The notes under the pieces are model-generated. The model saw nothing but the letters and a program-made list of their open reading frames with translations. It was not told where the DNA came from and searched no databases. This document shows, in pieces, positions 1,086 to 58,477 of a stretch of DNA of 61,683 nt. Numbering within the stretch: position 1 is the first letter of the stretch; each line of letters begins with the position of its first letter. Where the stretch lies: contig NC_057719.1 in the NCBI RefSeq assembly GCF_004010195.1, positions 5,882,570-5,944,252 on the forward strand, written 5' to 3'. Position numbers and translations under genes: made by a program. Origin of the DNA: Chiloscyllium plagiosum. Its lineage: Eukaryota.

Positions 1086-2954
1086 TAGAGTCACAGAGAT
1101 GCATAGCACGGAAACAGACTCTTCGGTCCAACCTGTCCATGCCGACCAGATATCCCAACCCAACCTAGTCCCACCTGCAAGCACCTGGCCCATATCCCTC
1201 CCAACACTCCCTATTCATATACCCACCCAGATGCCTTTTAAATGTTGTAATTGTACCAGCCTCCACCACTTCCTCTGGCAGCCCATTCCATACACATACC
1301 ACCCTCTGCGTGAAAAAGTTGCTCCTTAGGTCCCTTTTAATTTTTTTCCCCCTTCACCCTAAATCTATGCCCTGTAGTTCTGGACTCTCCCATCCCAGGG
1401 AAAAGTCCTTGTCTATTTACCCTATTCATGCCTTTCATGATTTTATAAACTTCCTGTAAGGTCATTTGGAAAGGCAAGGACTGATTAGGGATAATCAACA
1501 TGGCTTATGCATGGGAAATCATGTCTCACAAAATTGTTTTGAGTTTTTTTGAAGAAGTAATGAAGAGGATTGATGACGGCAGAGCAGTGGATGTGATCTA
1601 TATAGACTTCAGTAAGGCATTCGACAAGTGTTGAACACTCCAGCCTGTTCAACCTCTCCCCCTGTAGCTCAAATCCTCCGACCCTGGCAATATTGTAAAC
1701 ATTTTCTGAACCCTTTCAAGTTTCTGATAGGAGCGAAACCAGAACTGCACTCAATATTCTAAAAGTGGCCTAGTCAAAGTCCTGTACAGCCACAACATGA
1801 CCTCAATGCTCTTTCCAATAATAGGAAAGCATACCAAACACCTTCTTCACTATCCTTTCTACCTGCAACTCCACTTTCAAGGTGCTATGAAACTGCATTC
1901 CAAGGTCTTTTTGTTCAGCAACACTCCCCCAGGACCTTACCATTAAGTGTATATTTCTGCTCTGATTTGCTTTCCCAAAATGTAGTACCCTACATTTATC
2001 TAAATTAAACTCCATTTGCCACTCCTCAACCCATTGGCCTATCTGATCAAGATCCCATTATACTCTGAGGTAACCTTCTTCGCCATACACTACACCTCCA
2101 ATTTTGGTGTCATCTGCAGACTTACTAACTATACCTCCTATGTTCCCATCCAAATCATTTATATAAATGACAAAAATTAGTGGACCCAGCACCAATCATT
2201 GCGGCACAACACTGGCCACAGGCCTCCAGTCTGAAAAGCAACCCTCCACCACCGCCCTCTGTTTTCTACCTTCAAGCCAGTTCAGTATCCAAATGGCTAC
2301 TTCTTCCTGTATTCCATGGGATCTAACCTTGCTAACCTGTCTACCACGGGGAACCTTGTCGTACGCCTTACTGAAGTCTATATAGATCACATCCACTGCT
2401 CTGCCCTCATCAATCCTCTTCGTTACTTCTTCAAAAAACTCAATCAATTTTGTGAGACATGATTTCCCTAATCAGTCCTTGGCTTTTCAAATACATCTAA
2501 ATCCTATCCCTCAGGATTCCTTCCAACAACTTGCCCACCACTGATGTGAGGCTCACCAGTCCCTGGTGAGCCTGACCAGTCCTTACCACCTTTCTTAAAT
2601 AATGGTACCACGTTAGCCAACCTCCAGTTTTCCAGCACCTCACCTGTCACTTTCGATGATACAAATATCTCAGCAAGGGGCTTAGTAATCACTTCCCTAG
2701 CTTCTCACATATTTATGGGGATGCCTGACCAAGTCCTGGGGATTTATCCACTTTTACATGTTTTAAGATATCCAGGATCACCACCTCTGTAATATGGACA
2801 TTTTTCAAGATGTCACCATCTATTTCCCCAAATTCTGTATCTTCTTTGTCCTCCTCCACAGTAAACACTACAAAATACTCGTTTAGTATCTCCCCCATCG
2901 CCTGTGGCTCTTCACATAAGTTGCCTTGCTGATCTTTGAGGGGCCCTATTCTCT
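1086..2954 (-). mobile_element. CR1 LINE, 3' part (RT domain and 3' tail), degenerate
   Basis: ORFs 2196..2447 ([32 protein letters not shown]...VPQ), 2504..2692, 2713..2898 and 1803..2015 are CR1 ORF2 pieces. 3' tail at about 1086-1150. Continues at 7016 after a 4 kb insertion. Confidence 0.92.
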
Positions 2955-3048
2955 AGGAGAAAGTGAGGTCTGCAGATGCTGGAGATCAAAGTTGAAACTT
3001 TATTGCTGGAACAGCACAGCAGGTCAGGCAGCATCCAGGGAACAGGAG

Positions 3049-3084
3049 ATTCGACGTTTCGGGCACAGGCCCTTCTTCAGGAAT
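3049..3084 (-). ncRNA. Minimal type I hammerhead ribozyme motif, antisense copy
   Basis: Exact reverse complement of 3352-3387. Confidence 0.78.
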
Positions 3085-3351
3085 GAGCAGAGAGTGTTCA
3101 GCAGGAGAAGATAAAAGGTAGGGAGGAGGGACTTGGAGGAGGGGCGTTGGAAATGTGATAGGTGGAAAGAGGTCAAGGTGAGGGTGATAGGTCGGAGTAG
3201 GATGGAGGCGGAGAGGTCAACAAGAAGACTGCAGGTCAGGAAGGCGACGTGGTCGACGGTGCCCTCCACCGCATCTCCTCCACTTCCAACTCCCCTCCTC
3301 CAAGTCCCTCCTCCCTACCTTTTATCTTCTCCTGCTGAACACTCTCTGCTC

Positions 3352-3387
3352 ATTCCTGAAGAAGGGCCTGTGCCCGAAACGTCGAAT
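3352..3387 (+). ncRNA. Minimal type I hammerhead ribozyme motif (PLE-associated)
   Basis: Stem I ATTC/GAAT, core CTGAAGA, stem II GGGC/GCCC with CTGT loop, GAAA, vestigial palindromic stem III (ACGT), GTC triplet with predicted cut after 3383. Confidence 0.8.
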
Positions 3388-4856
3388 CTCCTGTTCCCTG
3401 GATGCTGCCTGACCTGCTGTGCTGTTCCAGCAATAAAGTTTCAACTTTGATATCCAAATGAATCCAACAAGAACTGGACCAAGCATATGTGGTACTCATA
3501 ATCTTCTTCATCCTAAGTATACGCATGATTTTACTACAACTGCTAAGTATTTCATCAGTAATATTTTCAGCAACATAACACAAAACATCGCAGATAAGAA
3601 AAACTGCAGCATATTAACATGCCAAATTTCCCCTAAAGTAAATGCATTAAAATTCCATCAAATTTGACAATATTGTTATGTATTTGGCTTTAAGGGGTTA
3701 ACACGTAGGGGGTTCCATACAACAGCCAAGCAGGGTGAGATCAATAGTTGTGATGTTGAGAAGATATGCTCTTCTTCATTAGGGTAAATAAAACCACAGA
3801 AAGTAGACAAAATCAAACACAAAATATTGCTGAGGAAAGGAGTGAACAAAGACAGAAATGGGAACTATTTAAATGTAAATCTATGATTCGCTCCAGTAAT
3901 AATATCTAACAATATTCAATATCTAGGATCATACCAAAAGAGTACTTTGAAGTATTAAAGGGATTTTCTGCTATCTAGTGATCTCTGAGGCATGAAGTTT
4001 CCCTTTCTTGATATGTGCAAGATCAAGACAAACACTAGGCATACAGTAACAGTGATATCACCGCAGGGAGTTGGCAGCCAATTACACTGAAGTATTCTCA
4101 AACAGCAAATCAGAAAGTAAAATGCAGTAAAATCTTCTACTCAATTAAAATTTCCACAGAGTAAATACAAATCATCAGTGATACACATGGGATTAAAGTA
4201 GCTGAAATATCATAACTTTTTTTTAAATTTGAAAAAAACATTATTGCCATAATAATGGCAAAAAAGCATCCCAGTGATATAACATTAGATTTCTATGAGT
4301 AACTATTGAGTTATTAAAATTAAATTGCATTTATATAGTAACTGTTATGGCCACAGAAAGATCCAAAATGCTTTACAGCCAATAAAGTACTTTGGAAGTA
4401 CAGTCAGTGTTGACACATAGCAGGCAATTTACATGTAGCAAGCTCCCACAAAAAGAAATGCTGTACTAATTATTGAAAAAATATTGACTATGACACCTGG
4501 AACAACTTTCTCATCAGTGGTGAGGTTCTGGAACCCACGAGTTCAAAGGGTAATACAGGCAAAAACCATAATCACATTAAAACATGCGGTGGAACAGTCA
4601 ATGGGTTTAGGAATCAAAATTTGGAGAGTGGGATTAGTGTGACGAGGTATTCATCGACTGGTATGGACATAATGTGCCAGACGACTACCTTCTGTGCATG
4701 AAATCTTACTGTGTTTTCTATGTATCTATAACTCTTATTAAAAATAGTGCCATTGGCTCTTCTATGTCTACATTAGAGGACAGACAGGCCTTCACTTAGT
4801 AGGCTCTCGTCAAAAAGATAGCAGCTTAAATCTTCCAACTTCCCTCACTGGATTGG

Positions 4857-5203
4857 AATGTGTTGCTGGAAAAGCGCAGCAGGTCAGGCAGCATCCAGGG
4901 AACAGGAGAATCGACGTTTCGGGCATAAACCCTTCTTCAGGAATGAGGAAAGTTTGTCCAGCAGGCTAAGATAAAAGGTAGGGAGGAGGGACTTGGGGGA
5001 GGGGCGTCGGAAATGTGATAGGTGGAAAGAGGTCAAGGTGAGGGTGATAGGCCAGACTGGGGTGGGGGCGGAGAGGTCGGGAAGAAGATTGCAGGTTAGG
5101 AAGGCGGTGCTGAGTTCGATGGATTTGACTGAGACAAGGTGGGAGGAGGGGAAATGAAATTTTCAGCTCTGATCTCCAGCATCTGCAGACCTCACTTTCT
5201 CCT
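4857..5203 (-). mobile_element. Neptune-like PLE 3' terminal fragment (second subfamily) with short inverted tip
   Basis: Same terminal repeat with AATGTGTTGCTGGAAAAGCGC variant. Hammerhead core on - at about 4910-4944. Inverted tip 5160-5203. Confidence 0.8.
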
Positions 5204-5573
5204 AGCCATAGTGAAGCCACACAGTGTCTAACTCAATGACTCGTCTCTGGTAAATACGAACGTTGTTGATCTCCTCTTGTGTTGAAATCAGAAACAGACA
5301 TGAAGGTGACAATTGGAAGCCACCCACCCTGCACTGAGACTGAAGCCAGCCGTCTCTGGTTTGATGTTTTCAAGAAAGACCTTTATATCTGCGATGGGAA
5401 GATTTGGGTGTCAATCTTACAAGGTAATGCAACAATATCATTAAGGTAGAGATGGATTGTTTGTAGTGCCACCCCTCAGTGAAGTTGTTAATGAATAAAT
5501 AGAATACATAAAGAAAGAAAGTCACATTTGTATGAACCTCAGCAAGGCTCATTACGGTCAATGAAATTTTTTT

Positions 5574-6088
5574 GGGGGCGGAGTTAGGCGTGGTGGCGGA
5601 ACGCGGCGGGGGGGCGGGGTTAGGCGTGGTGACGGAACGCGGCGGGGGGGCGGGGTTAGGCGTGGTGACGGAACGCGGCGGGGGGGCGGGGTTAGGCGTG
5701 GTGACGGAACGCGGCGGGGGGGCGGGGTTAGGCGTGGTGACGGAACGCGGCGGGGGGGCGGGGTTAGGCGTGGTGACGGAACGCGGCGGGGGGGCGGGGT
5801 TAGGCGTGGTGACGGAACGCGGCGGGGGGGCGGGGTTAGGCGTGGTGACGGAACGCGGCGGGGGGGCGGGGTTAGGCGTGGTGACGGAACGCGGCGGGGG
5901 GGCGGGGTTAGGCGTGGTGACGGAACGCGGCGGGGGGGCGGGGTTAGGCGTGGTGACGGAACGCGGCGGGGGGGCGGGGTTAGGCGTGGTGACGGAACGC
6001 GGCGGGGGGGCGGGGTTAGGCGTGGTGACGGAACGCGGCGGGGGGGCGGGGTTAGGCGTGGTGACGGAACGCGGCGGGGGGGCGGGGA
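5574..6088. repeat. GC-rich minisatellite, 36 bp unit GGCGTGGTGACGGAACGCGGCGGGGGGGCGGGGTTA x ~14
   Basis: Near-perfect tandem array visible directly. Gives 12-aa periodic ORFs in the track. Confidence 0.97.
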
Positions 6089-6928
6089 CACATGCGGGGA
6101 TGTGGTCCAAATGTAGGTTGCTGACGTCACTGGGGGCGGAAATAGCTGCGGCGACCACGGAGACAGAGTTTTCCCCATAGCCGCGGAGGTCGCCAATCTG
6201 TTGGCGATTGTCTTCATGACGATCGCAGAGCAGGTTGTCTGTGCGGCGATCCCGGAGGCGGTTGTTTGGGCCGCGATCATGAAGGTTGCGAGGTCGGTGG
6301 GGGCGGAAGTGACGTCATCGCCGGCGGCGTCTGCTGCTATTGCCGCGGGCGCTGTAGCGGCCGCGTGTGTAATGGCGCCGGACTGGTTTCGGAGGCCGAT
6401 GGAAGTTTCTGGAACGGTTTAGGAATCCGGAGTTTGGGGGTAAGTACATGAAAGTTTTTGGTACTTACTGCCTTTAATTTCCGATATGGCTAGAAAGAAC
6501 TGTTTGTTCAGTCTATGGATTCTTCTGTAAATGAAGAATAGTAGAGGTCCTTTACAGGTCTGTGAGAGAGTTGTCCTGAACTGGGGTAGGTCGAGTTGCA
6601 GGGAATGTAGGTACTGGCGCATGGCTGCAAGCGTGGAGTGGAGGATCCGGAGGGCAGTCCGTTGCTGGAGGCTGCGGATTTGTTGCAGGTACTGGTTGTC
6701 CTGGTTGGGTCCAAATTGTGTTGGTCGGAAGGTGATCTGGAGTCCATGGGAGATCAGTCGGTTCCGTAGGCAGGTGCTGAGAAAGGAGATATGGCTGTGG
6801 TAACGAGTCTGCTTCAGAATGTGGCTGAAGAGCTTCTGTGCAGAGGAGATGACCTGGGGTGTGCAGTGAGAGAGGAACTCACTGAAATCTTTGTAGAGAG
6901 AGGCAGAGAGCTTCTTCAAGGAAGGCAT
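5574..6928 (-). pseudogene. Neptune-like PLE ORF, N-terminal domain plus low-complexity linker (3'-truncated, disrupted)
   Basis: 6419..6928 contains HISFLSTCLRNRLISHGL, resembling the PLE N-terminal H..FL..C motif. ATG follows the PLE terminal repeat (6964-7015). Homologous to 61107-61683. In-frame TAA at 6419-21 where the other copy has TCA. Confidence 0.75.
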
Positions 6929-7015
6929 CCTTGTAAGAGGATTCGCAGTAGGTTGAAATCTTCGAGGAGAAAGTGAGGTCTGCAGATGCTGGAGATCAAA
7001 GTTGAAACTTTATTG

Positions 7016-9110
7016 CTATTCTCTCCCTAGTTACCCTTTTGTCCTCAATATATTTATCAAATCCCTTTGGGTTCTCCTTGGGCGGCACGGTGGCACAGTG
7101 GTTAGCACTGCTGCCTCACAGTGCCAGAAACCTGGGTTCAATTCCCGCCTCAAGCGACTGACTGTGTGGAGTTTGCACGTTTTCTCCATGTCTGCTTGGG
7201 TTTGCTCCGGGTGCTCCGGTTTCCTCCCACAGTCCAAAGATGTGCAGGTCAGGTGAATTGGCCATGCTAAATTGACCGTAGTGTTAGGTAAGGGGTAAAT
7301 GTAGGGGTATGGGTGGGTTGTGCTTCGGCGGGTCGGTGTGGACTTGTTGGGCCAAGGGCCTGTTTCCACACTGTAAGTAATCTAATCTAATCTAATCTAA
7401 TCATAATCCTATTTGCCAAAGCTATCTCATGTTCCCTTTTGGCCAAAGCTATCTCATGTTCCCTTTTGGCCCTGCTGATTTCCCTCTTAAGTATACTGCT
7501 ACTGCCTTTATACTCTACTAAGGATTAATTTAATCTATCTTGTCTCTACCTGACATATGCTTCCTTCTTTTTCTTAACCAAACCCTCATTTTCGTTAGTC
7601 ATCCAGCATTCCCTATACCTATCTGCCTTTCCTTTCACCCTAACAGGAATATACTATCTCTGGACTCTCATTATCTCATTTCTGAAGGCCTCCCATTTTC
7701 CAGCCATCCTTTTATCTGCAAACATCTGCCCCCAGTCAGCTTTTGAAAGTTCTTGCCTAAAATGTCAAAATTGGCCTTTCTCCAATTTAGAACTTCAACT
7801 TTTAGATCTGGTCTATCCTTTTCCATCACTTAAACTAATAGAGTTAAGGTCGCTGGCCCCAAACTGCTCTCCCACTAACACCTCAGTCACCTACCCTGCT
7901 TTATTCCCCAAGAGTAGGTCAAGTTTTGCATCCTCTCTAGTTAGGTACATCCACATATTGAATCAAAAAATTTTCTCGTACACACTTAACAAATTCCTCT
8001 CCATCTAAACCCTTAACACTCTGGCAGTCATAGTCTATGTTTGGAAAGTTAAAATCCCCTTCCATAACCACCCTATTATTCATACAGATAACTGAGATCT
8101 CCTTACAAATCTGTTTCTTAATTCCCGCTGACTATTGGGGGGTCTATTGTACAATCCCAATAAGGTGATCATTCCTTTCTTGTTTCTCAGTTCCACCCAA
8201 ATAACTTCCCTGGATGGATTCCCAGGAATATCCTCCCTAAATACAGCTGTAATGCTATACCTTATCAAAAATGCCACTGCCCCTCCTCTCTCGCCCCCCC
8301 CTTTCAATCCTCCCTGTAGCATTTGTATCCTGGAACATTAAGCTGCCAGTCCTGTCCATCCCTGAGCCACATCTCTGTAATTGCTATGATATGTCAGTCC
8401 CATGTTCCTAACCATGTCCTGAGTTCACCTGCCTTCCCTGTTAGGTCTCTTATATTGAAATAAATGCAGTTTAATTTATCAGTCCTAACTTGTTCTCTGC
8501 TTTGTTCCTGTCAGCCCTGACTGTTTGACACTCTCCTTTTCCCAACTGTACCAGTCTCAGATTGATCTCTGTCCTCACTATTTAGCTGGGTCCCCCCTCC
8601 TTCCCCTCCCAATATTACTCGTGTAAAACCTCCTGAGCACCTCTAGCTAATCTATATGTCCCCTTCAAATTCAGGTGCAATCTGCCCTTCTTGTACAGGA
8701 CACTTCTCTCCCAGAAGAGATTCCAATGATCCAAGAATGTAAACCCTTCTCCCCTGCACCAACTCCTCAGGCATTCATCTGCTCTATCATCCTATTCCTA
8801 CCCTCACGACCTCATAGCACCGGGAGTAATCCAGGTGCCCTCGAGGACCACCTTTTTAAATTCCTGCCTAACTTTCCATATTCTCCCTTCAGAATCTCAT
8901 CCCCTTTCCTTCCCAGTTCCAATGTGTATAGAAACCACCTGCTGGTCCCTCTCCCCTTTGAGAAGGTTCTGCACCCTCTCCAAGACATCCTTGATCCTGG
9001 AACCAGGGAAGCAACACACCATTCTGATTTTTCACCGCCGACCGCAGAAACATCTGTCTGTGCCTCTGATCGAGAGTCCCCTATCATAATCAATCACTTG
9101 GAACCCTTCA
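7016..9110 (-). mobile_element. CR1 LINE, 5' part (APE endonuclease and ORF1 SGNH-esterase region), same element as 1086-2954
   Basis: 8080..8322 (GGAVAFLIR...IWVELRNKKGMITLLGLYNRPPNS) is APE endonuclease. 8812..9093 (IMIGDS...) is esterase-like ORF1. Colinear with the CR1 copy at 37870-39860. Interrupted by a SINE at 7080-7402. Confidence 0.9.
7080..7402 (+). mobile_element. HE1-type tRNA-derived V-SINE, full length
   Basis: GGGCGGCACGGTGGCACAGTGGTTAGC head (A box), GGTTCAATTCC B box, V-domain TGTGTGGAGTTTGCACGT, CR1-like tail and (CTAAT)n end. Confidence 0.92.
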
Positions 9111-9118
9111 TACACTTT

Positions 9119-9680
9119 CATAGAATCCCTACTGTGTGGAAACAGGCCATTTGGCCCAACAATTCCACACCGACCCTCCGAAGAACATCTCACCCAGACC
9201 CACTCCCCGAAGCATATACCCCTGACGAAGGCACCTAACCTTACATGTCCCTGAACACTGTGGAGGAGAAAGTGAGGTCTGCAGATGCTGGAGATCAGAG
9301 CTGAAAATGTGTTGCTGGAAAAGCGCAGCTGGTCAGGCAGCATCCAGGGAACAGGAGAATCGACGTTTCGGGCATAAGCCTTCCTGAAGAAGGGCTTATG
9401 CCCGAAACGTCGATTCTCCTGTTCCCTGGATGCTGCCTGACCTGCTGCGCTTTTCCAGCAACACATTTTCAGCCCTGAACACTGTGGGCAATTTCCCATG
9501 GCCAATTCACCTAACCTGCACATCTTTGGATTATGGGAGGAAACCAGAGTACCTGGAGGAAACCCACGCAGACACAGGGAGAATGTGAAAACTCCACACA
9601 GACAGCCGCCCAAGGCTGGAATTGAATCTGGGTCCCTGGCACTGTGAGGCAGAAGTACTTATCACTGAGCCACTGTGCCA
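9119..9680 (-). mobile_element. HE1-type SINE interrupted by a PLE hairpin
   Basis: Reverse-complement similarity to 7080-7402. Split at 9263/9473 by an insertion with TSD. Confidence 0.85.
9264..9472. mobile_element. Fold-back PLE terminal element, TSD CCCTGAACACTGTGG
   Basis: TSD at 9249-9263 and 9473-9487. Inverted arms meet at the hammerhead core (CTGAAGAAGGGCTTATGCCCGAAACGTC). Confidence 0.9.
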
Positions 9681-9688
9681 TCCAGAGC

Positions 9689-9795
9689 CATTCTGAAGAA
9701 GGATCATTGAACCCGAAACTTTAAGACTACTTTCTTTCCATAGATGCTGCCGGAGCTGCTGAGTTTCTCCAGCAATTCCTGATTTTGTTTCTGAT
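9689..9795 (+). mobile_element. Older PLE terminal-repeat fragment (CTGAAGAAGGGTCACTGGACCCGAAAC family)
   Basis: Degenerate hammerhead core followed by GATGCTGCC...CTGCTGAGTTTCTCCAGCAATT. Confidence 0.65.
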
Positions 9796-10589
9796 GTCAC
9801 AAACCAAACCAGGTCGATGAAATAACAGGCTCAGATTTTCTAATTGTTTAATACTGATATGTAGATAAATGCATTGCCTATTGTGAGATTGTGCTAATGG
9901 GGGCATGTTCCATTTTTGATATGAGTTTGATGTTTTGTGAGTGAATCTTGACTCTGGTCTTGATCCAGCCTGTAATGTAGTTAGTCTTGCAGAGAACGTA
10001 AATCACCCATGCCCCACTTTCCCAGTTTTTAAAAGAACTTCTCCTTTTAAATCAGAGGATAGGAGGCTGTAGCCACTATTCTGTCTTCTGTGGCCTGTAA
10101 CATACCCCCACCTTGCTACCCTGAACTGTCCCCAGAGGCGTACAAAGGCCTACAATAAATTGGTATGTGTTGCATCCGTTTTCCATGCATAAAATGGGCC
10201 GAGCGCAGACCAGTTTCTCCTCCAGTGCACCCTCTGGTTCTCAATCCGTTTACGCCTGAAAAGTTTCTTCCTATCTAAACTCCTCATGATTTTGAAAACT
10301 TGAAGCCTGAAAGTTACTCATTAACCATTACTCTTTTTCATATACCTCAGTCCATTTTGTTTTCAAGTTCCTTTTATTTTATGGCCTGTGACTTTCCTTA
10401 CACACCTATTATGTGGGACTGTAACAAATGCCTTTTAAAAGTTCAGATATACTATGTCAGCAGCCTTGACCTCATTAACCCTCTGTGTTATCTTTTAAAA
10501 TATTCCAAGTTAGTTGGATGCAATTTTCATCTAATAAACTTATGCTGACTCTTCCAAATTAACCAATATTTTTCCGTGTGACTTTTTTA

Positions 10590-10930
10590 AAAAATTCATT
10601 TGTGGAGTTTGTGTAATGCTGTCTTTGTGAGTATTTATTGCCCATCCTTAACCTACCAGCAGGCAGTTAAGAGTCAGTCACATTGCTGTGGATCTGAAGT
10701 CACATGTAAGCCAGACCAAGTCAGGATGGCAGATTTTCTTCCCAAATGGGTATTAGTGAACCAAATGGGCATTCACAAAAATTGATATGGATACATGGTT
10801 GTTTTTTGCTCCAGAATGTTACCAAATTCAGCTTTCGTAACCTGTCATGGGGGGAATTCACACTCATGTCACCGGAACATTAGCCTGGGATTCTGGATTA
10901 TTAGTCTAATTACATTCCCACGACACTATC
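10590..10930 (-). mobile_element. Unnamed dispersed repeat, probably a SINE (other copies ~19810-20070, ~33990-34440, ~43130-43440 on +, ~52770-53110)
   Basis: Recurrent GGCAGTTAAGAGTCAAcCACATTGCTGTGGATCTGGAGTCACATGTA...CCAGAACATTAGCCTGGG motif in several places. Confidence 0.55.
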
Positions 10931-11345
10931 TATCCTTAATTATGTTATTAAATCTTCCTGAATAATTGTTTTTAGAAGTTCCCTCACCACTAAAGGTTAA
11001 GCTGACTGATCTGTAATTGCGAGGCCGATCTTTACAAATGTGTTCAAACAAAGACATAATGTTTGTAATCCTCCAGTCCTTTTGCACCACCCTGAATCCA
11101 AGGAAAATTGACGATTATTATCAATTGTTATTAGATTATTGCCAGTATCTTCACTGCTCCTTACACTACTACTATCCCAGACTATGTTTGGATCATTAAA
11201 GTCTGCCATTTTTAATGGTCAATGATGTTTACACGTCTTTGTAATTGCCTTCCAATTTATTTCTGCATATCCTCCCCACTAGTTGGTGGCATGTTGATCA
11301 TACCAAATAATGTCATTTCACCCATTTTATTAATAACTCCAGCTT

Positions 11346-11475
11346 AGGGAAGGCACGGTGGCTCAGTGGTTAGTACTGCTGCCTGACAACACCAGGGACC
11401 CAGGTTTGATTCCACCCTCAGGCAACTGTCTGTGTCTAGTTTGCACATTCTCCCAGTGGGTTTCTTCCAGGTACT
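11346..11475 (+). mobile_element. HE1-type SINE 5' fragment
   Basis: GGCACGGTGGCTCAGTGGTTAG head and start of the V-domain. Confidence 0.7.
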
Positions 11476-12104
11476 TTGGAAATCTATTGTCCTTAACCTG
11501 GTCTGGCTCCCATGTGGTTGACATGCAGTGTGGTTCACTCTGATCTATTCTGTCAATTAGCATAATAGGCTTCTCAGTTCAAGATGGACAAGAAAGATAT
11601 GCCTTACCAGTGACACACACATCCCATGAACGATTCAAATATCTTCGTTCTGAATGGTGTGTTATTATGACTCTGAATGATGGATTGTTGTAGGTCACAA
11701 CAGTTTATATCTAAGATGGACAAAATTAGCAAAGTGGACCAGAGGTTGGTATTTTCTGCATTAATACATTGCTCATTGTATCTGTAATAGTAAAATTAAT
11801 CATTACTTAATTAGTTTCTCTTCTAAGTTAAGGCTGTTGAGAATGGTATAGGTGAAAGTTAATGCACTGAAATATTCATGAGCTGCTGAATAAAACACCT
11901 GACTGATGTTATAATTGGTTATGCATCCTTTAATTTATGATAATAAATGACTTCTGTCTCGTGTCATTTACAGCAACAATGTAATTACCTCTTGGGACTA
12001 AGGGAACAGCTCTAATGTTTCAAGTGATAATTTCAACTTTTCAGTTACAAGCAGCAGCTTCCCCTCCCTCATTAATTTTTGGCTTACTCTCTTACTTGAC
12101 TGAC

Positions 12105-12385
12105 TGAGTTGACATCACTCTTAATCTGAGTCAGAAGGTTGAAGGTTCAAGTTCTCTTCTGGAATCCTGAACAGATATTCCAGGCAGGTATCCCAGTGCA
12201 TGGAGTGCTGCGCTATCGTGAGGTGCCGTTCTTCAGCTGAAATATTAGATAGATTTTGTCTGTCTGTTCAAGATCATGATCATAAGTGGAGAGTTGGGAG
12301 TTCTCCTGACAATGTGGTCACCTTCACTAACATAACCAACTATTCATACTATTAGTGACTTGCTACAAACAAGTTGGCTAACACA
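12105..12385 (+). mobile_element. Ancient Deu-domain SINE (SacSINE1-like), decayed; related pieces ~4325-4500 (-), ~22570-22640, ~44520-44910, ~50630-51240 (-)
   Basis: CTGAGTCAGAAGGTTG.AGGTTCAAGT...GGAGTGCTGC...GAGGTGCCGT motif, recalled from the SacSINE1/AmnSINE Deu family. Confidence 0.55.
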
Positions 12386-12396
12386 ATCAACCATCA

Positions 12397-12582
12397 GGAG
12401 GAGAAAGTGAGGTCTGCAGATGCTGGAGATCAGAGATGGAAATGTGTTGCTGGAAAAGCGCAGCAGGTCAGGCAGCATCCAGGGAACAGGAGAATCGACT
12501 GAAGAAGGGCTAATGCCCGAAACGTCGATTCTCCTGTTCCCTAGATGCTGCCTGACCTGCTGCGCTTTTCCAGCAACACATT
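12397..12582. mobile_element. Fold-back PLE terminal element, TSD ACAATCAACCATCA
   Basis: TSD at 12383-12396 and 12583-12596. Inverted arms. One intact hammerhead core on +. Confidence 0.9.
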
Positions 12583-13009
12583 ACAATCAACCATCACAAA
12601 AGTTCACTGTCAGCATAACATTTTTAGGTTATTTGGAGAGGCATGATAAATGAACAAATCAAGGGAAGAATTAGCAAGGAATGTTCAAACCTGTAATTAA
12701 ACAGTACAAAAATAAATGTTAAAAGTTTAAATGTTTATCTGTGTGACATTGAAAGCATCAGGGTACATTTGAGCTCAGCAGGAATTGTCTGTGCACTTTT
12801 AACTTTTCCAAGGTTGAGTTATACCCTCATCAAAGGGTTTGGAACAATACTGCCTAAATTCATACACAAGTAGAATTGATATAAGAACATAAGTATTTGT
12901 TTGACATATGTTCTTAAGAAGTTATTAAAATTTATAATAAAGAACAGTAATCAGGCACTTTCAGTAGCTTAGCTAATCAGAAAGAATCAATAGTAAATCA
13001 CCATCAATT

Positions 13010-13235
13010 GATATAAGAACTAGGATCAAGAGTAGGCCATTTGGCTCCTCGAGCCTGCTCTGCCATTCAGTAAAATCATGAATGATCTTTTCGTAGACTC
13101 AGCTCCGCTTACCCACCCTCTCAACGTAACCCTTAATTCCTTCATTGTTCAAAAATACATCTACCTCAGCTTTAAAAACATTTTCTGAAGTAGTGTCAAC
13201 TACGTCACTGGGCAGGAAATTCCATTGATCATAAT
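13010..13235 (-). mobile_element. CR1 3' end fragment
   Basis: WNFLPSDVVDTTSENVFKAEVDVFL (ORF 13099..13281) is the CR1 ORF2 C-terminus, plus a TAAGAAC-type tail. Confidence 0.75.
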
Positions 13236-14552
13236 CATAAAAATGACATACTGAAGACCTTGTTATGGTATCATTGAGCACTCTAGTATGTTACTGAGAA
13301 GCCAGTATGTAACTAGCAAGGAATACAGAGTATTTTGTTGGATAATTAACTTTATGGATAATCGAATGCCTGATAATACAGTTCAGCCAAGCACTGGAAC
13401 TTTGCAATGTTGTCCAGATATTCTGATATTCGGATAATCGAGGTTACTCTGTATTTGAATTTTATAGGTCATGAAATTTACTAAACTGTTTTGGGTCTAC
13501 TACATACGGCTATGATGTTTATAAAACTAAACATGCAAAGAATATCAATATTAATACAAGACATTTTTTACAATAAAATTTGAAGGAAAATATAATCATG
13601 CCTAAAGAAGACCTTTGAAACAGCAGTGAGCAATCGTGTAAATAAAAAGAAGAGGTAATGGTAGACATGTTGTTTAATTATTTGATATCAGTCTTCACAA
13701 TGGAGGAAGAGGGAAATATAATTGAAATTCTAGAGAAATTAGCAAGGATTCTAACTTAATACTGTTAATGAAAGCAAGAGAACAGTATTAAAAAGAAAAT
13801 CAATGACATGAAAGACTTTTAAATCCCTGGGTTTGATTTTTCTCACCCAGGTTTTAAAGGAAGTAGATGAAAAATTCCAAGGGATGTAGCCATAATCTTC
13901 CAAACCTGCCTTAACTGTAGAATTTTCTTTTAGATATATGCCATAATTTGAAACAAGTGAGAAAAAGAAATGAGGAAAGTAGAGATCTGTTCATCGGACA
14001 TATGTTCTTGATAACTTATTAAAACTTATAATAAAGAACAGTAACTGAGCATTCTCAGTAATTTCAGCTCATCAGAAAAAATCAATAGTAAATCGCCATC
14101 ATGGTGAAGGTAGCAGTTACTGTCTAATTGTGCATTCAGTTGGAGGGAGAGTAGAATGGATCCAAACGAGTATTTTAAAGTAAAATACAATCAGTTTATG
14201 AAGACATGAAAATACCGTGCTAAAATGATTTAGCAAAATAGATTTAGGTTCAATAGCAATCCTGCCAGACATTTAAGGTATCATTAATGGAATAATTATA
14301 TTCCATGAGAAAGAAGAATTCCAAAGTGGGGGTAAACTAATAAAAGCATGTAATTATGCCAGGGTTGAAGGTTGGAAACTATACAAAAGACAGCAAAAAA
14401 TTATTAAGGCAGGAAACAGAGTATAAGGTAAATTAGTCAGAAATATGAAAGCAGGTAGTAAACTTTCCATAGACTTTTTAAAGAAGAAATTAGTTAAGGA
14501 AGTGAATATTGGTTCTTTAGAAAGTGAATCTGGGAAATTAATGATTGCAAAT

Positions 14553-15609
14553 AACCAACCGACTCCCACAGCTACCTGGACTACACCTCCTCCCATCCTG
14601 CCCCCTGTAAAAACGCTATCCCATTCTCCCCTCAGAGATCACTAGATAGCAGAAAATCCCTTTAATACTTCAAAGTACTCTTTTGGTATGATCCTAGATA
14701 TTGAATATTGTTAGATATTATTACTGGAGCGAATCATAGATTTACATTTAAATAGTTCCCATTTCTGTCTTTGTTCACTCCTTTCCTCAGCAATATTTTG
14801 TGTTTGATTTTGTCTACTTTCTGTGGTTTTATTTACCCTAATGAAGAAGAGCATATCTTCTCAACATCACAACTATTGATCTCACCCTGCTTGGCTGTTG
14901 TATGGAACCCCCTACGTGTTAACCCCTTAAAGCCAAATACATAACAATATTGTCAAATTTGATGGAATTTTAATGCATTTACTTTAGGGGAAATTTGGCA
15001 TGTTAATATGCTGCAGTTTTTCTTATCTGCGATGTTTTGTGTTATGTTGCTGAAAATATTACTGATGAAATACTTAGCAGTTGTAGTAAAATCATGCGTA
15101 TACTTAGGATGAAGAAGATTATGAGTACCACATATGCTTGGTCCAGTTCTTGTTGGATTCATTTGGATATCAAAGTTGAAACTTTATTGCTGGAACAGCA
15201 CAGCAGGTCAGGCAGCATCCAGGGAACAGGAGATTCGACGTTTCGGGCACAGGCCCTTCTTCAGGAATGAGCAGAGAGTGTTCAGCAGGAGAAGATAAAA
15301 GGTAGGGAGGAGGGACTTGGAGGAGGGGCGTTGGAAATGTGATAGGTGGAAAGAGCTCCATCCTACTCCGACCTATCACCCTCACCTTGACCTCTTTCCA
15401 CCTATCACATTTCCAACGCCCCTCCTCCAAGTCCCTCCTCCCTACCTTTTATCTTCTCCTGCTGAACACTCTCTGCTCATTCCTGAAGAAGGGCCTGTGC
15501 CCGAAACGTCGAATCTCCTGTTCCCTGGATGCTGCCTGACCTGCTGTGCTGTTCCAGCAATAAAGTTTCAACTTTGATCTCCAGCATCTGCAGACCTCAC
15601 TTTCTCCTC
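14553..15609 (+). mobile_element. Composite PLE insertion: RT fragment (14553-14629) + 539 bp captured DNA (14630-15168) + fold-back terminus (15169-15609)
   Basis: 14553-14629 encodes PTDSHSYLDYTSSHPAPCKNAIPFS, homologous to 30895-30975. 14630-15168 is the reverse complement of 3452-3990. Inverted arms carry hammerhead cores at ~15233-15268 (-) and ~15479-15514 (+). Confidence 0.85.
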
Positions 15610-19679: not shown

Positions 19680-20815
19680 AGATTATTCCATAAATGGTAA
19701 AATGTTCGAGGCTGTAGATGTGTAAAGAGATTGGGTGTCTGCATCAGTAAGTCACTGAAGAAAGCAGGTGCAGTAGGCAATCAGAAAGGTGAATGGTATG
19801 CCAGAATATAGACATTACTGGCTATGCCAGCATTTTACCCATCCTTAATTGCTTAGAAGGCAATTAAGAGTCAAAGATATTGTTGATCTGGAGTCATTAT
19901 GGGTCAGATTGGGTAAGGGTGATAAATTTCTTTCCCTAAAGAACAAAGATCAGTCAGATGCATTTATGCAGCAATCAACATCAATTGCTATTAGCGTAGC
20001 TTTTCATTCCAGAATTTAACTGAATTTGAATTTCACCATCTGCTGGTTTCTCCAGAACATTAGCCTGGGGTTCTGCCTAATTCATATGTTTTGTGTGCAG
20101 TTTACAATAGGGAAGTTATGTCTAATAAATCTAACTTAACTTTTGAGGAAGTAAGTCTTCTACCATTGACCATTGGGAGAAGACCATAGAGACATTGGAT
20201 AATGATATCACACAAGGATTTGTGCTGGGACCTCAACTATCAATTATATTTATCAATGATTTAGATTTTTTTAATTTAACCTATTTTTCTAATGATTCTG
20301 TTCAGAGATGTTATTACACAGCCATGGAACAGGTGGGACTTGAACCCAGGCCTTCTGGTCCAGGGGTAGGGACATTACCACTGTGCCACAAGCGGGTCTG
20401 ATATCAATGAGTTAGATAACATGAACACAAATTGGAAACTGAAATAGACCATTCGACCCCCACAAGAAAATTGTGCCTAATTTATTGTGTTTTGAATACC
20501 ACAGTCCAATATATCCTTATAAATCTTTGATTCTCTCATCTAATAGGTTTGCCATTGGCACAAAGATTGGTGACATTGTATGTAGTGTAATGGAGCCATA
20601 AATTTGCAAAGCTACATTGATGAATGAACTGGTAAAACTAGCAGAGGACTTTCTGTACATTTAAGTGAAAAATTATTCATCTTGTTCATAAATCTTTACA
20701 CTGAATGAGGACATAAACTTAAAATCAAAGGCAGGCCATTCAGGAGAGAGGTTAGAAAATGTTCAGCACCATTCACAACTCCTCAAATACTGAAACAGTC
20801 TCTGTTCAAATGAAG

Positions 20816-21002
20816 GAGAAAGTGAGGTCTGCAGATGCTGGAGATCAGAGCTGGAAATGTGTTGCTGGAAAAGCGCAGCAGGTCAGGTAGCATCCAGGGA
20901 ACAGGAGAATCGATGTTAGAAGGGCTTATGCCCGAAACGTCGATTCTCCTGTTCCCTGGATGCTGCCTGACCTGCTGCGCTTTTCCAGCAATACATTTCC
21001 AG
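20816..21002. mobile_element. Fold-back PLE terminal element, TSD CTCTGTTCAAATGAAG
   Basis: TSD at 20800-20815 and 21003-21018. Inverted arms joined within the hammerhead core. Confidence 0.9.
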
Positions 21003-22014
21003 CTCTGTTCAAATGAAGCAAGACCTGAACAAAATTCATGTTTGGGTTGAAACTTGGCAAATAACATTCACGCCATACAAATGCCAGGCAATGATCATTT
21101 CTAAGAAGAGAAATTCTGACTGTATACATTGACGTTCAGTGATATTTCAATGACTGGATCCCCCCACTATCAACTTCCTAAGATTTACTGTTGACCAGAA
21201 ACTGGACCAACCATATAAATACAGTGACTACAAGAGGAGGTTAAAGGCTAGGAGTCCTGTAATAAGCAACTCATCCCTTGGTTCCCAAAGTCTGTCCACC
21301 ATCTACAAGGGACAAATCAAGAGCATAGTGGGATGCTTTCTCCTTTCCTGGATAGATGCAGCTCTATCAGCATTCAAGAAGCTTGATACCATCCAGGACA
21401 AAGTAGCCACCTGATTTGGGGCCACATCCACAATTATCCACTCCACCACTGATGCTTACTATTCGTGGTATGTACCATCTGCCTCTTGCAAAATTTCACC
21501 AAAGGTCCTTCACCAGCATTTCCAAGCCAACAACAGCTTCCATCGAGAAGGACAAGGGCAGCAGATACATGAGAACACTATCACTGCAATTTTCTTTCCA
21601 AGCTATTCAGCATTCTGATTTGGAACAATCCAATGACACTGAATCAAGACATAAAACTTCCCTGGCATGGTGGGTCTCCCTACAGCACATGGACTGCATT
21701 GGTTCAAGAAGACAGATTACCACCTTCTCAAGGGCAGCTAGGGGCAGGGAATGCACCCACATCCAATGGGGGAATTAAAAAAAACACTTGTTCCTTCAAA
21801 GCATTATAGATATGTGGAACTCTCCCATAAATTCAGATTTAAATTCATTGAGATCACATCTCTACCATCGGGGAGAAGGTACAGAAGCCTGAACACGTGC
21901 ACCAGCCAGTTTCACAACAGTTTCTATCCTACTGTTGTTAGCATACTGAATGGACTCTCAAACTCTTAGCATGTGATCTCAATGAATTTAAATCTGAGAT
22001 GAACAGTTTCTTAA

Positions 22015-41954: not shown

Positions 41955-42183
41955 GGAGACAGTGAGGACTGCAGATGCTGGAGATCAGAATTGAGAGTGT
42001 GTTGCTGGAAAAGCATAGCAAAGTCAGGCAGCATCTGAGGAGCAGGAAAATCTTCGTTTTGGACCGGAGCCCTTCATCAGGAATGAGGGTGCCCGTTCCT
42101 GATGAAGGGCTCTGGCCAGAAACGTCGATTCTCCTGCTCCTCAGATGCTGCCTGACCTGCTGTGCTTTTCCAGCAACACGCTG
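41955..42183. mobile_element. Fold-back PLE terminal element with degenerate hammerhead cores on both strands
   Basis: Inverted arms. Imperfect TSD CAAGCCTG..TGATG at ~41941-55 and ~42185-99. Confidence 0.8.
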
Positions 42184-42735
42184 TCAAGCCTGTCTGATGC
42201 CCAGGCCTTGCTGCATATGCTTCCAAGCCATTTGAGTGCTTGAGTTATGAGTGGTGCTGAATATTGTGCAATCATCAAATAATTTACTACTGACCTGAAT
42301 GATGGAGGGAAAGTCACTGATAAAACACCTGGAAGTGATTGGGGCCAGGACACCACCATCAAGAGGTCCTGGAAATGATTGAAATGGTGGAATTTGAATC
42401 TGTATGCGGTAAAAGTAAGACTGTTAACTGGAAGTTGCAATAAGCCAGCTTCTATGCAGACAGGTGGTGTGTGTGGCATTTATTCAGTATCTAGAAGCTG
42501 AATTAAAATAGAAGGGTGAAAGATTACAGATGAAACAACATTGAGTCTAACTTTGCCCTTGGAGGGATAATGATGTTATTGCCCTTCTATTTTAAGGAGT
42601 AGCACAAAAGTGTGTTACAAATGTTGCTATCCTTAAGTTACTGTCCTAAACTAGATTGAAACTAAGTCCAAATTAGATGAACTAAGGACCTAGTTAAATT
42701 TTTCTCTTTGTTTAAGTGTTTAATCACTCCTCCTA

Positions 42736-58200: not shown

Positions 58201-58436
58201 ATCAAAGTTGAAACTTTATTGCTGGAACAGCACAGCAGGTCAGGCAGCATCCAGGAAACAGGAGATTCGACGTTTCGGGCACAGGCCCTTCTTCAGAAGG
58301 CCCTCATTCCTGAAGAAGGGCCTGTGCCCGAAACGTCGAATCTCCTGTTCCCTGGATGCTGCCTGACCTGCTGTGCTGTTCCAGCAATAAAGTTTCAACT
58401 TTGATCTCCAGCATCTGCAGACCTCACTTTCTCCTC
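58201..58436. mobile_element. Fold-back PLE terminal element with back-to-back hammerhead cores, TSD CCAATGTGAGCATC
   Basis: TSD at 58190-58203 and 58436-58449. Arms 58201-58297 and ~58310-58405 are near-perfect inverted repeats. Same young subfamily as 2955 and 15169. Confidence 0.92.
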
Positions 58437-58477
58437 CAATGTGAGCATCCTCTCGCAAGTCATTATCCCCAGTATCA

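Follow-up and report, generated by a model that had tools for sequence, protein, structure and literature searches.

The capture of host DNA by Penelope-like elements (PLEs) is already published: EN+ Penelope elements of Adineta vaga take it up between or beside their pLTRs (PMC3846280; this report and the four others below are cited from excerpts of their text). As in the family described here, pLTRs and a TSD accompany non-PLE DNA mobilized in trans, and the pLTR is inverted with an optional ∼31-bp tail. The excerpt gives a few single cases (PMC3846280), whereas our family has ∼300 copies without observed divergence, is absent from another individual, and has a two-locus cargo and a measurable switch register. 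The anole Poseidon element PAc, for which a dimer is predicted, cleaves and extends both strands in vitro from two start sites (PMC11167929). We likewise find two RT start sites with a 30–40-nt tail between them; two-RNA reactions, template switches or an in-register skip are not described in the PAc excerpt (PMC11167929). The formation of tandem and inverted PLE insertions is described as undefined (PMC8557442, excerpt). Non-LTR retrozymes share with our family a non-coding nature, a type I hammerhead and an origin from PLE ends, but are presented in the excerpt as tandem monomers, in contrast to our cargo element, which measures 3.4 kb, is truncated at the 5' side and has inverted arms and TSDs of 13–15 bp (10.64898/2026.07.22.740005).

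Here we analyze 61,683 nt of Chiloscyllium plagiosum DNA (NC_057719.1, positions 5,882,570–5,944,252; hereafter the window), in which an initial annotation had located the same hairpin-linked, non-PLE segment twice, in inverted orientation 11 kb apart, and read it as a candidate PLE-mediated 5' transduction.

Results

Two insertions in the window

The annotated inverted repeat is exact: 3452–3990 and the reverse complement of 14630–15168 agree at 539/539 bases, and the short ORFs shared by both copies are a trivial consequence of this identity. The exact match is in fact wider (3281–3990 versus 14630–15339, 710 nt), and a second exact block of 253 nt pairs 2955–3207 with 15356–15608. Cargo and hairpin join at one identical base in both copies, as annotated; contigs from other species align from 3450, where host sequence begins with a 2-nt overlap common with the pLTR. 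The hairpin loops are indeed unlike (copy 1 'a>292, S1043>995, S201', copy 2 'a>253, S220'), the loop type of copy 1 being present in 27/81 typed copies and that of copy 2 in 5/81, and the inner arm differs as well. A PLE RT fragment at 14553–14629 (translation KPTDSHSYLDYTSSHPAPCKNAIPFS) lies beside copy 2 only. All features are listed in Table 1.

Table 1. Features of the two insertions (window positions; d, PLE position counted from the tail-bearing end)
Feature	Position	Strand	Remark
Left 9-bp TSD of insertion 1, in CR1 remnant	2946..2954	.	identical to 7016-7024
Terminal arm, young PLE 3' end, d1-292	2955..3246	-	inferred RT start
Loop piece, PLE d1043-995 in opposite orientation	3245..3293	+	hairpin-type marker, 27/81 typed copies
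Inner arm (pLTR), minimal hammerhead motif at 3352-3387	3281..3451	+	pattern and fold: core, stem I, stem II; putative ribozyme
Cargo segment 1, host DNA	3452..4856	.	one copy and no hairpin in species B, species C and a further individual of A
Older-subfamily PLE hairpin, junction zone of the cargo's two host loci	4857..5205	.	match to G000:C7:22.329 Mb
Cargo segment 2, host DNA from C7 locus	5206..5573	.	sequence match
PLE 5' part after cargo: 36-nt tandem repeats (5574-6087), ORF N-terminus, part of 5' pLTR	5574..7017	-	
Right TSD of insertion 1	7016..7024	.	2-nt overlap with element
Landing piece of copy 2, 77 nt of PLE RT region, d1142-1218	14553..14629	+	RT translation
Cargo of copy 2, 5'-truncated segment 1, 539 bp	14630..15168	.	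identity with copy 1
Hairpin of copy 2, arms d31-220 and d1-253; putative hammerhead motif at 15479-15514	15169..15608	.	

When the CR1 flanks of copy 1 (2955–7017) are rejoined, they align gap-free with nine CR1 relatives. Its older-subfamily hairpin differs by four substitutions from a TSD-flanked hairpin at G000:C7:22.329 Mb, and segment 2 extends 796 nt further in other copies, up to a (CA)n tract. The PLE 5' part appears to have been joined to the copy 1 cargo by a template switch; its landing position is not placed on our PLE ruler, because no fetched locus connects d2315 with the tandem repeats. Copy 2 (14553–15608) jumped after 979 nt had been copied, at an offset of +163, and has no TSD.

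Helper element and cargo

An ORF in L072 matches RVT_1 above cut-off (E = 6.7e-8) and GIY-YIG below cut-off (E = 3.6e-4), the second half of the latter domain being lost in that copy; the GIY-YIG stretch is intact and read through in L132. One ORF thus holds an RT followed by a C-terminal GIY-YIG domain, as in EN+ Penelope-like elements, and by motif resemblance we take the helper clade to be Penelope/Poseidon. Among the loci fetched, none contained the whole helper without interruption, and L042 and L043, considered as full-length helpers, both belong to another cargo family. Pattern and fold, compared with the usual layout of the motif, place a putative minimal hammerhead in the pLTR, with its core, a stem I of 4 bp and a stem II. 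Rfam returned no hammerhead match for the hairpins at gathering score, and its matches below that score are hairpin-driven microRNA models. Insertions have an inverted 5' pLTR, a 30–40-nt tail at one end only and a TSD.

Segment 1 is single-copy and without hairpin in sequencing runs X13, X19 and X5 (two related species and another individual), and segment 2 has its native locus on C7. The sequence comparisons support a cargo of host DNA from two loci, transduced behind a Penelope-like hairpin. The annotation placed the hairpin at the RNA 3' end and took the non-PLE DNA to be host sequence transported from it, which is supported on two counts: 5' truncations are nested and anchored at the hairpin, and the cargo is single-copy and hairpin-free in relatives. 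Nested 5' truncation together with TSDs points to a probable RNA intermediate. The genome and relatives search proposed at the outset settled the copy number (302 junctions) and did not find the segment 1 donor locus: four pattern searches of the assembly (one pattern with one wrong base) recovered neither a donor nor an empty allele, and two matches from one of them were unrelated older hairpins. The longer donor hairpin that had been postulated was likewise not found by pattern searches of the assembly. In a 2% sample of one RNA run, from another individual that may or may not be a carrier, no read matched the cargo. It is likely that the family spread in trans by a Penelope enzyme, as a non-coding passenger.

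A family of ∼300 insertions and the chance of a close pair

Exact hairpin–cargo junctions number 302 genome-wide, and exact matches fall with distance from the hairpin (302, 256, 190); the copies are nested 5' truncations. We observe 0 mismatches over 77,803 nt (80 copies), and 40/40 scored genome matches of segment 1 are 100% identical along 1,400 nt. Family copies are dispersed, truncated, inverted-arm insertions rather than tandem monomers; their left ends cluster near d0 or d35, and template switching, claimed in the initial annotation for the pair, is pervasive among them. A higher variability of the terminal arm was considered and dropped, since its excess of differences (9 versus 3 in the inner arm, over 9,801 nt per arm) is not significant (P = 0.15).

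The 539 bp thus belong to a ∼300-copy element, an outcome that the initial annotation itself had named as refuting its reading, and a two-copy event is not supported. The annotated reading of the pair, in which one donor gave rise to two integrations that were local or clustered, would fit the spacing of 11 kb, as the smallest gap among 100 copies listed on C1–C9 is 183 kb. We consider this very unlikely, since 302 copies are expected to yield 0.31 pairs within 12 kb by chance (P = 0.26 for at least one such pair genome-wide), and since the two copies represent different hairpin sub-lineages, with different loop types and inner arms, the copy 2 type being also present on C1, C2 and C3. The window pair, very probably two separate insertions of the family brought close by chance, is itself ordinary.

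Landing position follows the copied length

In many copies, cargo gives way to PLE sequence of the same direction, and the landing position equals the copied length plus ∼215 nt, with a slope of 1.01. In the discovery copies of class II (n = 33; the split into classes I and II was drawn after the data were seen), rho is 0.81, the Theil–Sen slope 1.01 (0.92–1.07) and the median offset +214 (IQR 199–243), with 28/33 copies within +150 to +300 and 0/20,000 permutations reaching this result. Landing pieces are short (median 166 nt). The 17 held-out copies contain six antisense switches, all at +191 to +239. Among unrelated insertions, PLE-only ones included, 11/15 gap-free jumps are in range (null mean 3.6; P = 2.5e-5), 4/15 are not, and a jump is absent from 4 of the 24 whose end is visible. 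In-range switches thus account for 29/39 measurable discovery copies, 6/6 held-out switches and 11/15 jumps in unrelated insertions. Of the ten discovery exceptions, six lie at +369, +376, +902, -1123, -222 and -213, and the other four, all of them two-ended, range from -711 to -1859; when the two-ended class is added, rho drops to 0.50 (14/20,000 permutations).

The ruler is the majority path through the fetched loci, checked by natural PLE copies to about d2200 only; L078 was excluded as a ruler for an internal rearrangement. If the prevailing PLE variant were shorter by 240 nt, the offset would shift to about zero. We rejected this reading: the corresponding junction is private to L072 among the fetched loci, and natural PLE copies span the segment. 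Hidden homology between cargo and PLE was rejected as well (identity 0.239 near junctions versus 0.235 at random). Offsets differ by a median of 19 nt between start-site types (CI -11 to 41). A lead that is constant in nucleotides, for which 70 would be expected, is disfavored by this result, which does not separate 0 from 35. PLE-only copies reveal the same step only as a ∼200–260-nt internal deletion. We found no register rule for PLE switches in the published literature searched.

All junctions come from a single assembly of 101,977 contigs with N runs inside PLE copies, and polishing could inflate the zero divergence. Palindrome misjoins or homogenization by polishing are nevertheless an extremely unlikely source of these patterns: copies have individual flanks, truncation points and TSDs, loop orientation is uniform within each hairpin type, and misjoins would not make the landing position follow the cargo length.

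Ends consistent with two primings

Tail and no-tail ends are complementary in 32/35 two-ended copies, and in 8/9 held-out ones; the second end can derive from a different RNA, as in L060 and L102. The class I arm has a median length of 220, matching the offset, and does not depend on cargo length (rho -0.007). TSDs of class I have a median of 13 and are present in 26/28 copies, those of class II are shorter or missing (median 7, present in 21/33; P = 1.2e-4). The second cDNA is absent from 31/33 class II copies, and terminal segments have been re-copied several times in L023, L109, L113 and L149.

Discussion

We are highly confident of the family and of the chance pair. That its separate insertions spread in trans while two RNAs were copied at once is probable, and a lockstep mechanism, with paired RTs acting one per nick on two RNAs and then swapping, is the account we narrowly favor. 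The first RT would start on the element's own mRNA and have gained a lead of ∼215 nt by the time the second begins on a guest RNA; both would then advance at equal pace, one from each nicked strand. An early stall of the first RT would leave a ∼220-nt cDNA as the inverted second end (class I). At an end or a break of the guest RNA, its cDNA would pass to the mRNA and be extended there from the position that the other RT has reached. PLE RTs are not known to have RNase H, and the mRNA behind the switch point would therefore be in hybrid. The switched cDNA would extend by a further ∼170 nt and join the target, the other cDNA being trimmed off (class II, including copy 2). This second cDNA is postulated and not seen, as it is missing from nearly all class II copies. 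Also against the account, the reciprocal products that it predicts (PLE followed by a short cargo piece) were not found (0/80 and 0/60 matches), where ∼12–14 were expected for a symmetric swap.

L1 elements cut with an APE endonuclease and prime at poly(A). Their twin priming also creates opposite-orientation segments from two primings, and their chimeras, formed via template switch or RNA ligation, are also in the same orientation; the excerpted report describes no landing position that follows the copied length (PMC13174262). The register could alternatively be set in RNA, if guest RNA and PLE mRNA shared one particle, were cut at matched 3' distances and were ligated, or jumped, end to end under one RT. 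This would account for the missing second cDNA and the short landing pieces, the repeated re-copying of terminal segments would be expected at a broken RNA end, and RNA ligation is published for L1 chimeras (PMC13174262, excerpt). We regard it as rather unlikely, as no obvious ruler would give a slope of 1 across 100–1,500 nt and as the equality of offset and class I arm length is left unexplained. Repair at the DNA level, in which two cDNAs stop together and the cargo cDNA receives the 3' end of the PLE cDNA, either cut off or inverted, likewise predicts matched lengths and is consistent with the eroded class II TSDs. It seems improbable, requiring several cuts and full loss of the remaining PLE cDNA, and the microhomology of end joining is mostly missing (no overlap in 19/33 class II junctions).

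The lockstep account suggests a general proposal, which we put forward tentatively and hold at slightly below even confidence: PLEs may integrate by paired reverse transcription of two different RNAs, in lockstep and ∼215 nt out of phase, with a homology-free hand-over of cDNA. Any RNA ending in a pLTR could then serve as guest, giving rise to serial transductions and to families of hundreds of copies in one lineage. With the cargo as a marker, an integration step that would otherwise go almost unseen can be measured, and the numeric predictions (slope 1, ∼+215 nt, complementary start sites) are directly testable in the published PAc system. In one lineage, host DNA of ∼3 kb can thus be carried by PLEs to ∼300 sites, whereas in another individual bearing the same species label this ∼3 kb of cargo DNA is single-copy.

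Two members of a large cargo family

Both window insertions join host-DNA cargo to a hairpin whose arms are formed by the terminal repeat (pLTR) of a Penelope-like element (PLE), presumably of Poseidon type. The inverted 539-bp match described in the initial annotation is exact (539/539 bases identical) and sits within a perfect inverted repeat of 710 nt, which takes in the inner hairpin arm. Copy 1 is a 4.06-kb insertion into a CR1 remnant, and its flanks, once joined, match nine relatives gap-free. At copy 2 the translated flanks resemble the window's own CR1 ORF2, and codon spacing suggests that ∼7 nt were deleted at the site. Five simple PLE hairpin insertions lie elsewhere in the window, at least four of them with clear TSDs.

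Features of the two insertions, of other hairpin insertions in the window, and of a second cargo family at two fetched loci (L042, L043)
Feature	Position	Description
Copy 1	2955-7017	9-bp TSD
Segment 1	3452-4856	host cargo
Old PLE hairpin	4857-5205	
Segment 2	5206-5573	host cargo
Tandem array	5574-6087	36-nt, ∼14 units, in PLE ORF linker; codes Pro/Arg-rich repeat
Copy 2	14553-15608	TSD absent
Simple hairpin	9263-9478	
Simple hairpin	12398-12588	
Simple hairpin	20811-21010	
Simple hairpin	41955-42192	
Simple hairpin	58201-58438	young PLE subfamily
Second cargo family	L042:1840-4920	sense-oriented, 3,081 bp; 99.97% identity with L043 copy
Second cargo family	L043:1940-5020	sense-oriented, 3,081 bp

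The 1,400-bp cargo segment has 433 genome candidates, and all 40 that were scored are full length and 100% identical. Exact pattern counts genome-wide fall from 302 at the hairpin-cargo junction to 256 at ∼250 nt and 190 at ∼610 nt into the cargo, as expected for 5' truncation. The cargo breaks off as early as window position 3515 and, in the longest copies, at a (CA)n tract that lies 796 nt past the window copy's end; no mismatch occurs among copies in 77,803 nt. The window pair consists of members of this family and is not a special pair: chance placement of 302 sites would leave 0.31 pairs less than 12 kb apart, and the probability of one or more such pairs is 0.26. Hairpin types also differ (copy 1's occurs in 27 of 81 typed copies, copy 2's in 5), and thus neither was made locally from the other. 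PLE-mediated transduction holds as the origin of the cargo family; the proposal of clustered integration fails.

The two most frequent hairpin forms (33 copies of the type of locus L021 and 27 of that at window 2955-3451) appear to be mutual inversions plus a 52-nt loop deletion, with one diagnostic base changing arm between them. The second cargo family contains a CR1 RT fragment, ends at a young pLTR, and meets the PLE N-terminal part at differing points in its two copies.

A chimeric cargo

Segment 1 lies on single contigs (depth ∼12) in sequencing runs from two relatives (species B and C) and from another individual of the source's species; these contigs align from 3450, extend 625-1,800 nt upstream and are hairpin-free, so the family is missing from that one other individual. 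In species B and C, 3450-4855 and 5204/5220-5570 lie on different contigs. This split prompted a search for the TSD predicted by the old hairpin, which returned one match: at C7:22.329 Mb the old hairpin stands between perfect duplication copies, followed by segment 2. Across ∼1.5 kb the locus differs from the family cargo by 8 substitutions plus a single 14-nt indel, and it runs beyond the (CA)n tract into sequence absent from fetched family copies. Together, these contigs and the C7 locus show the cargo to be chimeric: two loci meet at old PLE ends, likely through successive transductions that included a switch within the old pLTR. Pattern searches of the assembly did not find the native site of segment 1.

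Most switches keep register with the copied length

The analysis covered both window copies and 80 junctions out of 100 listed on nine contigs (C1-C9). Of the 20 omitted, 14 were long copies already fetched and 6 later served as held-out, and long copies are therefore under-represented. Distances (d) count from the PLE 3' end along a ruler walked through fetched loci; natural copies served as a check on it, one of them reading through the GIY-YIG region. In class I (28 of 82 copies) cargo is joined directly to an inverted PLE end; in class II (33/82, including copy 2) it jumps into same-direction PLE sequence, essentially without a second end. The remainder comprise 5 copies of both classes, 3 landing in the N-terminal/tandem region (including copy 1), 3 with junction gaps, 9 unclassified and 1 without a readable left end. 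On re-examination L088 became class II and L102 class I.

Class II landing positions equal the copied length plus a median of 214 nt (IQR 199-243), with a slope of 1.01 (0.92-1.07) and rho of 0.81 (0 of 20,000 permutations). Landing pieces have a median length of 166 nt, and copy 2 agrees with this register (offset +163, 77-nt piece). When class II is pooled with L088 and the five two-ended copies, 29 of 39 switches fall within +150 to +300 and 10 are off register. Homology is lacking at the junctions.

The register recurred outside this set. Among 17 held-out copies, with the range fixed in advance, all six switches lie at +191 to +239. We also examined 29 unrelated loci selected solely for the RT piece of copy 2: 11 of 15 usable loci are in range, versus 3.6 expected (P = 2.5e-5), including PLE-only insertions in which the jump is a 210-264-nt deletion. 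Four others with N gaps give offsets of 143-278; five have no visible end, four no jump and one an unusable end.

Several side observations concern the PLE pieces themselves. Many of them, at L146-L148, L156, L162-L167, L170 and copy 2, stop within d1218-1251, which may be a hot spot for termination; the probe itself skews ends to 1218 or more. N gaps within young PLE copies (L061-L064, L071, L073-L075, L080) fall ∼220-340 nt short of the ruler's prediction, either because in-register jumps are hidden in them or because the gap sizes are biased. At the far ends of L023, L103, L109, L113, L149 and L151 the landing piece has its final 25-130 nt copied two to four times over, as if RT had re-primed at a broken RNA end.

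Left ends cluster at two sites separated by ∼35 nt, in agreement with the tail and the pair of RT start sites reported for an anole element (PMC11167929). Where a second, inverted end is present, 32 of 35 copies (held-out, 8/9) have it in the type complementary to the first. Its source can be a different RNA: in L102 it comes from an older subfamily and in L060 from another cargo family.

A possible paired-enzyme mechanism

Since unrelated templates share a slope of 1, a second molecule of the enzyme probably travels along PLE RNA at an equal rate. The class I arm (median 220) is independent of cargo length and equals the offset, which suggests that the first-primed RT, on the element's mRNA, would have a head start of ∼215 nt. 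In class II the other cDNA would be removed; the shorter or missing TSDs (median 7 versus 13 in class I) fit such a step. Breakage of the guest (cargo) RNA as switch trigger would account for the one-way direction. Against paired enzymes, 31 of the 33 class II copies show no second cDNA, reciprocal products number 0/80 and 0/60 where roughly 12-14 were expected, and 10 of the 39 switches miss the register. A real rival is that cutting and joining at the RNA level set the register. Two of the off-register switches stand out. Among these, L039 and L088 land ∼215 nt short of the copied length (-222 and -213), mirroring the main peak; the guest may have primed first in these two events, which are only suggestive.

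Relation to known systems

Published work on a rotifer describes host DNA captured by PLE ends (PMC3846280), PLEs as a rule carry inverted ends and tails (PMC8557442), and L1 is known for twin priming, template switching and RNA ligation (PMC13174262). By the tandem criterion (10.64898/2026.07.22.740005), the cargo family is not a retrozyme. Full-text literature searches that reached few subscription papers showed, mainly in listings and abstract openings, no account of a distance-matched switch. The value of the finding lies in the register rule.
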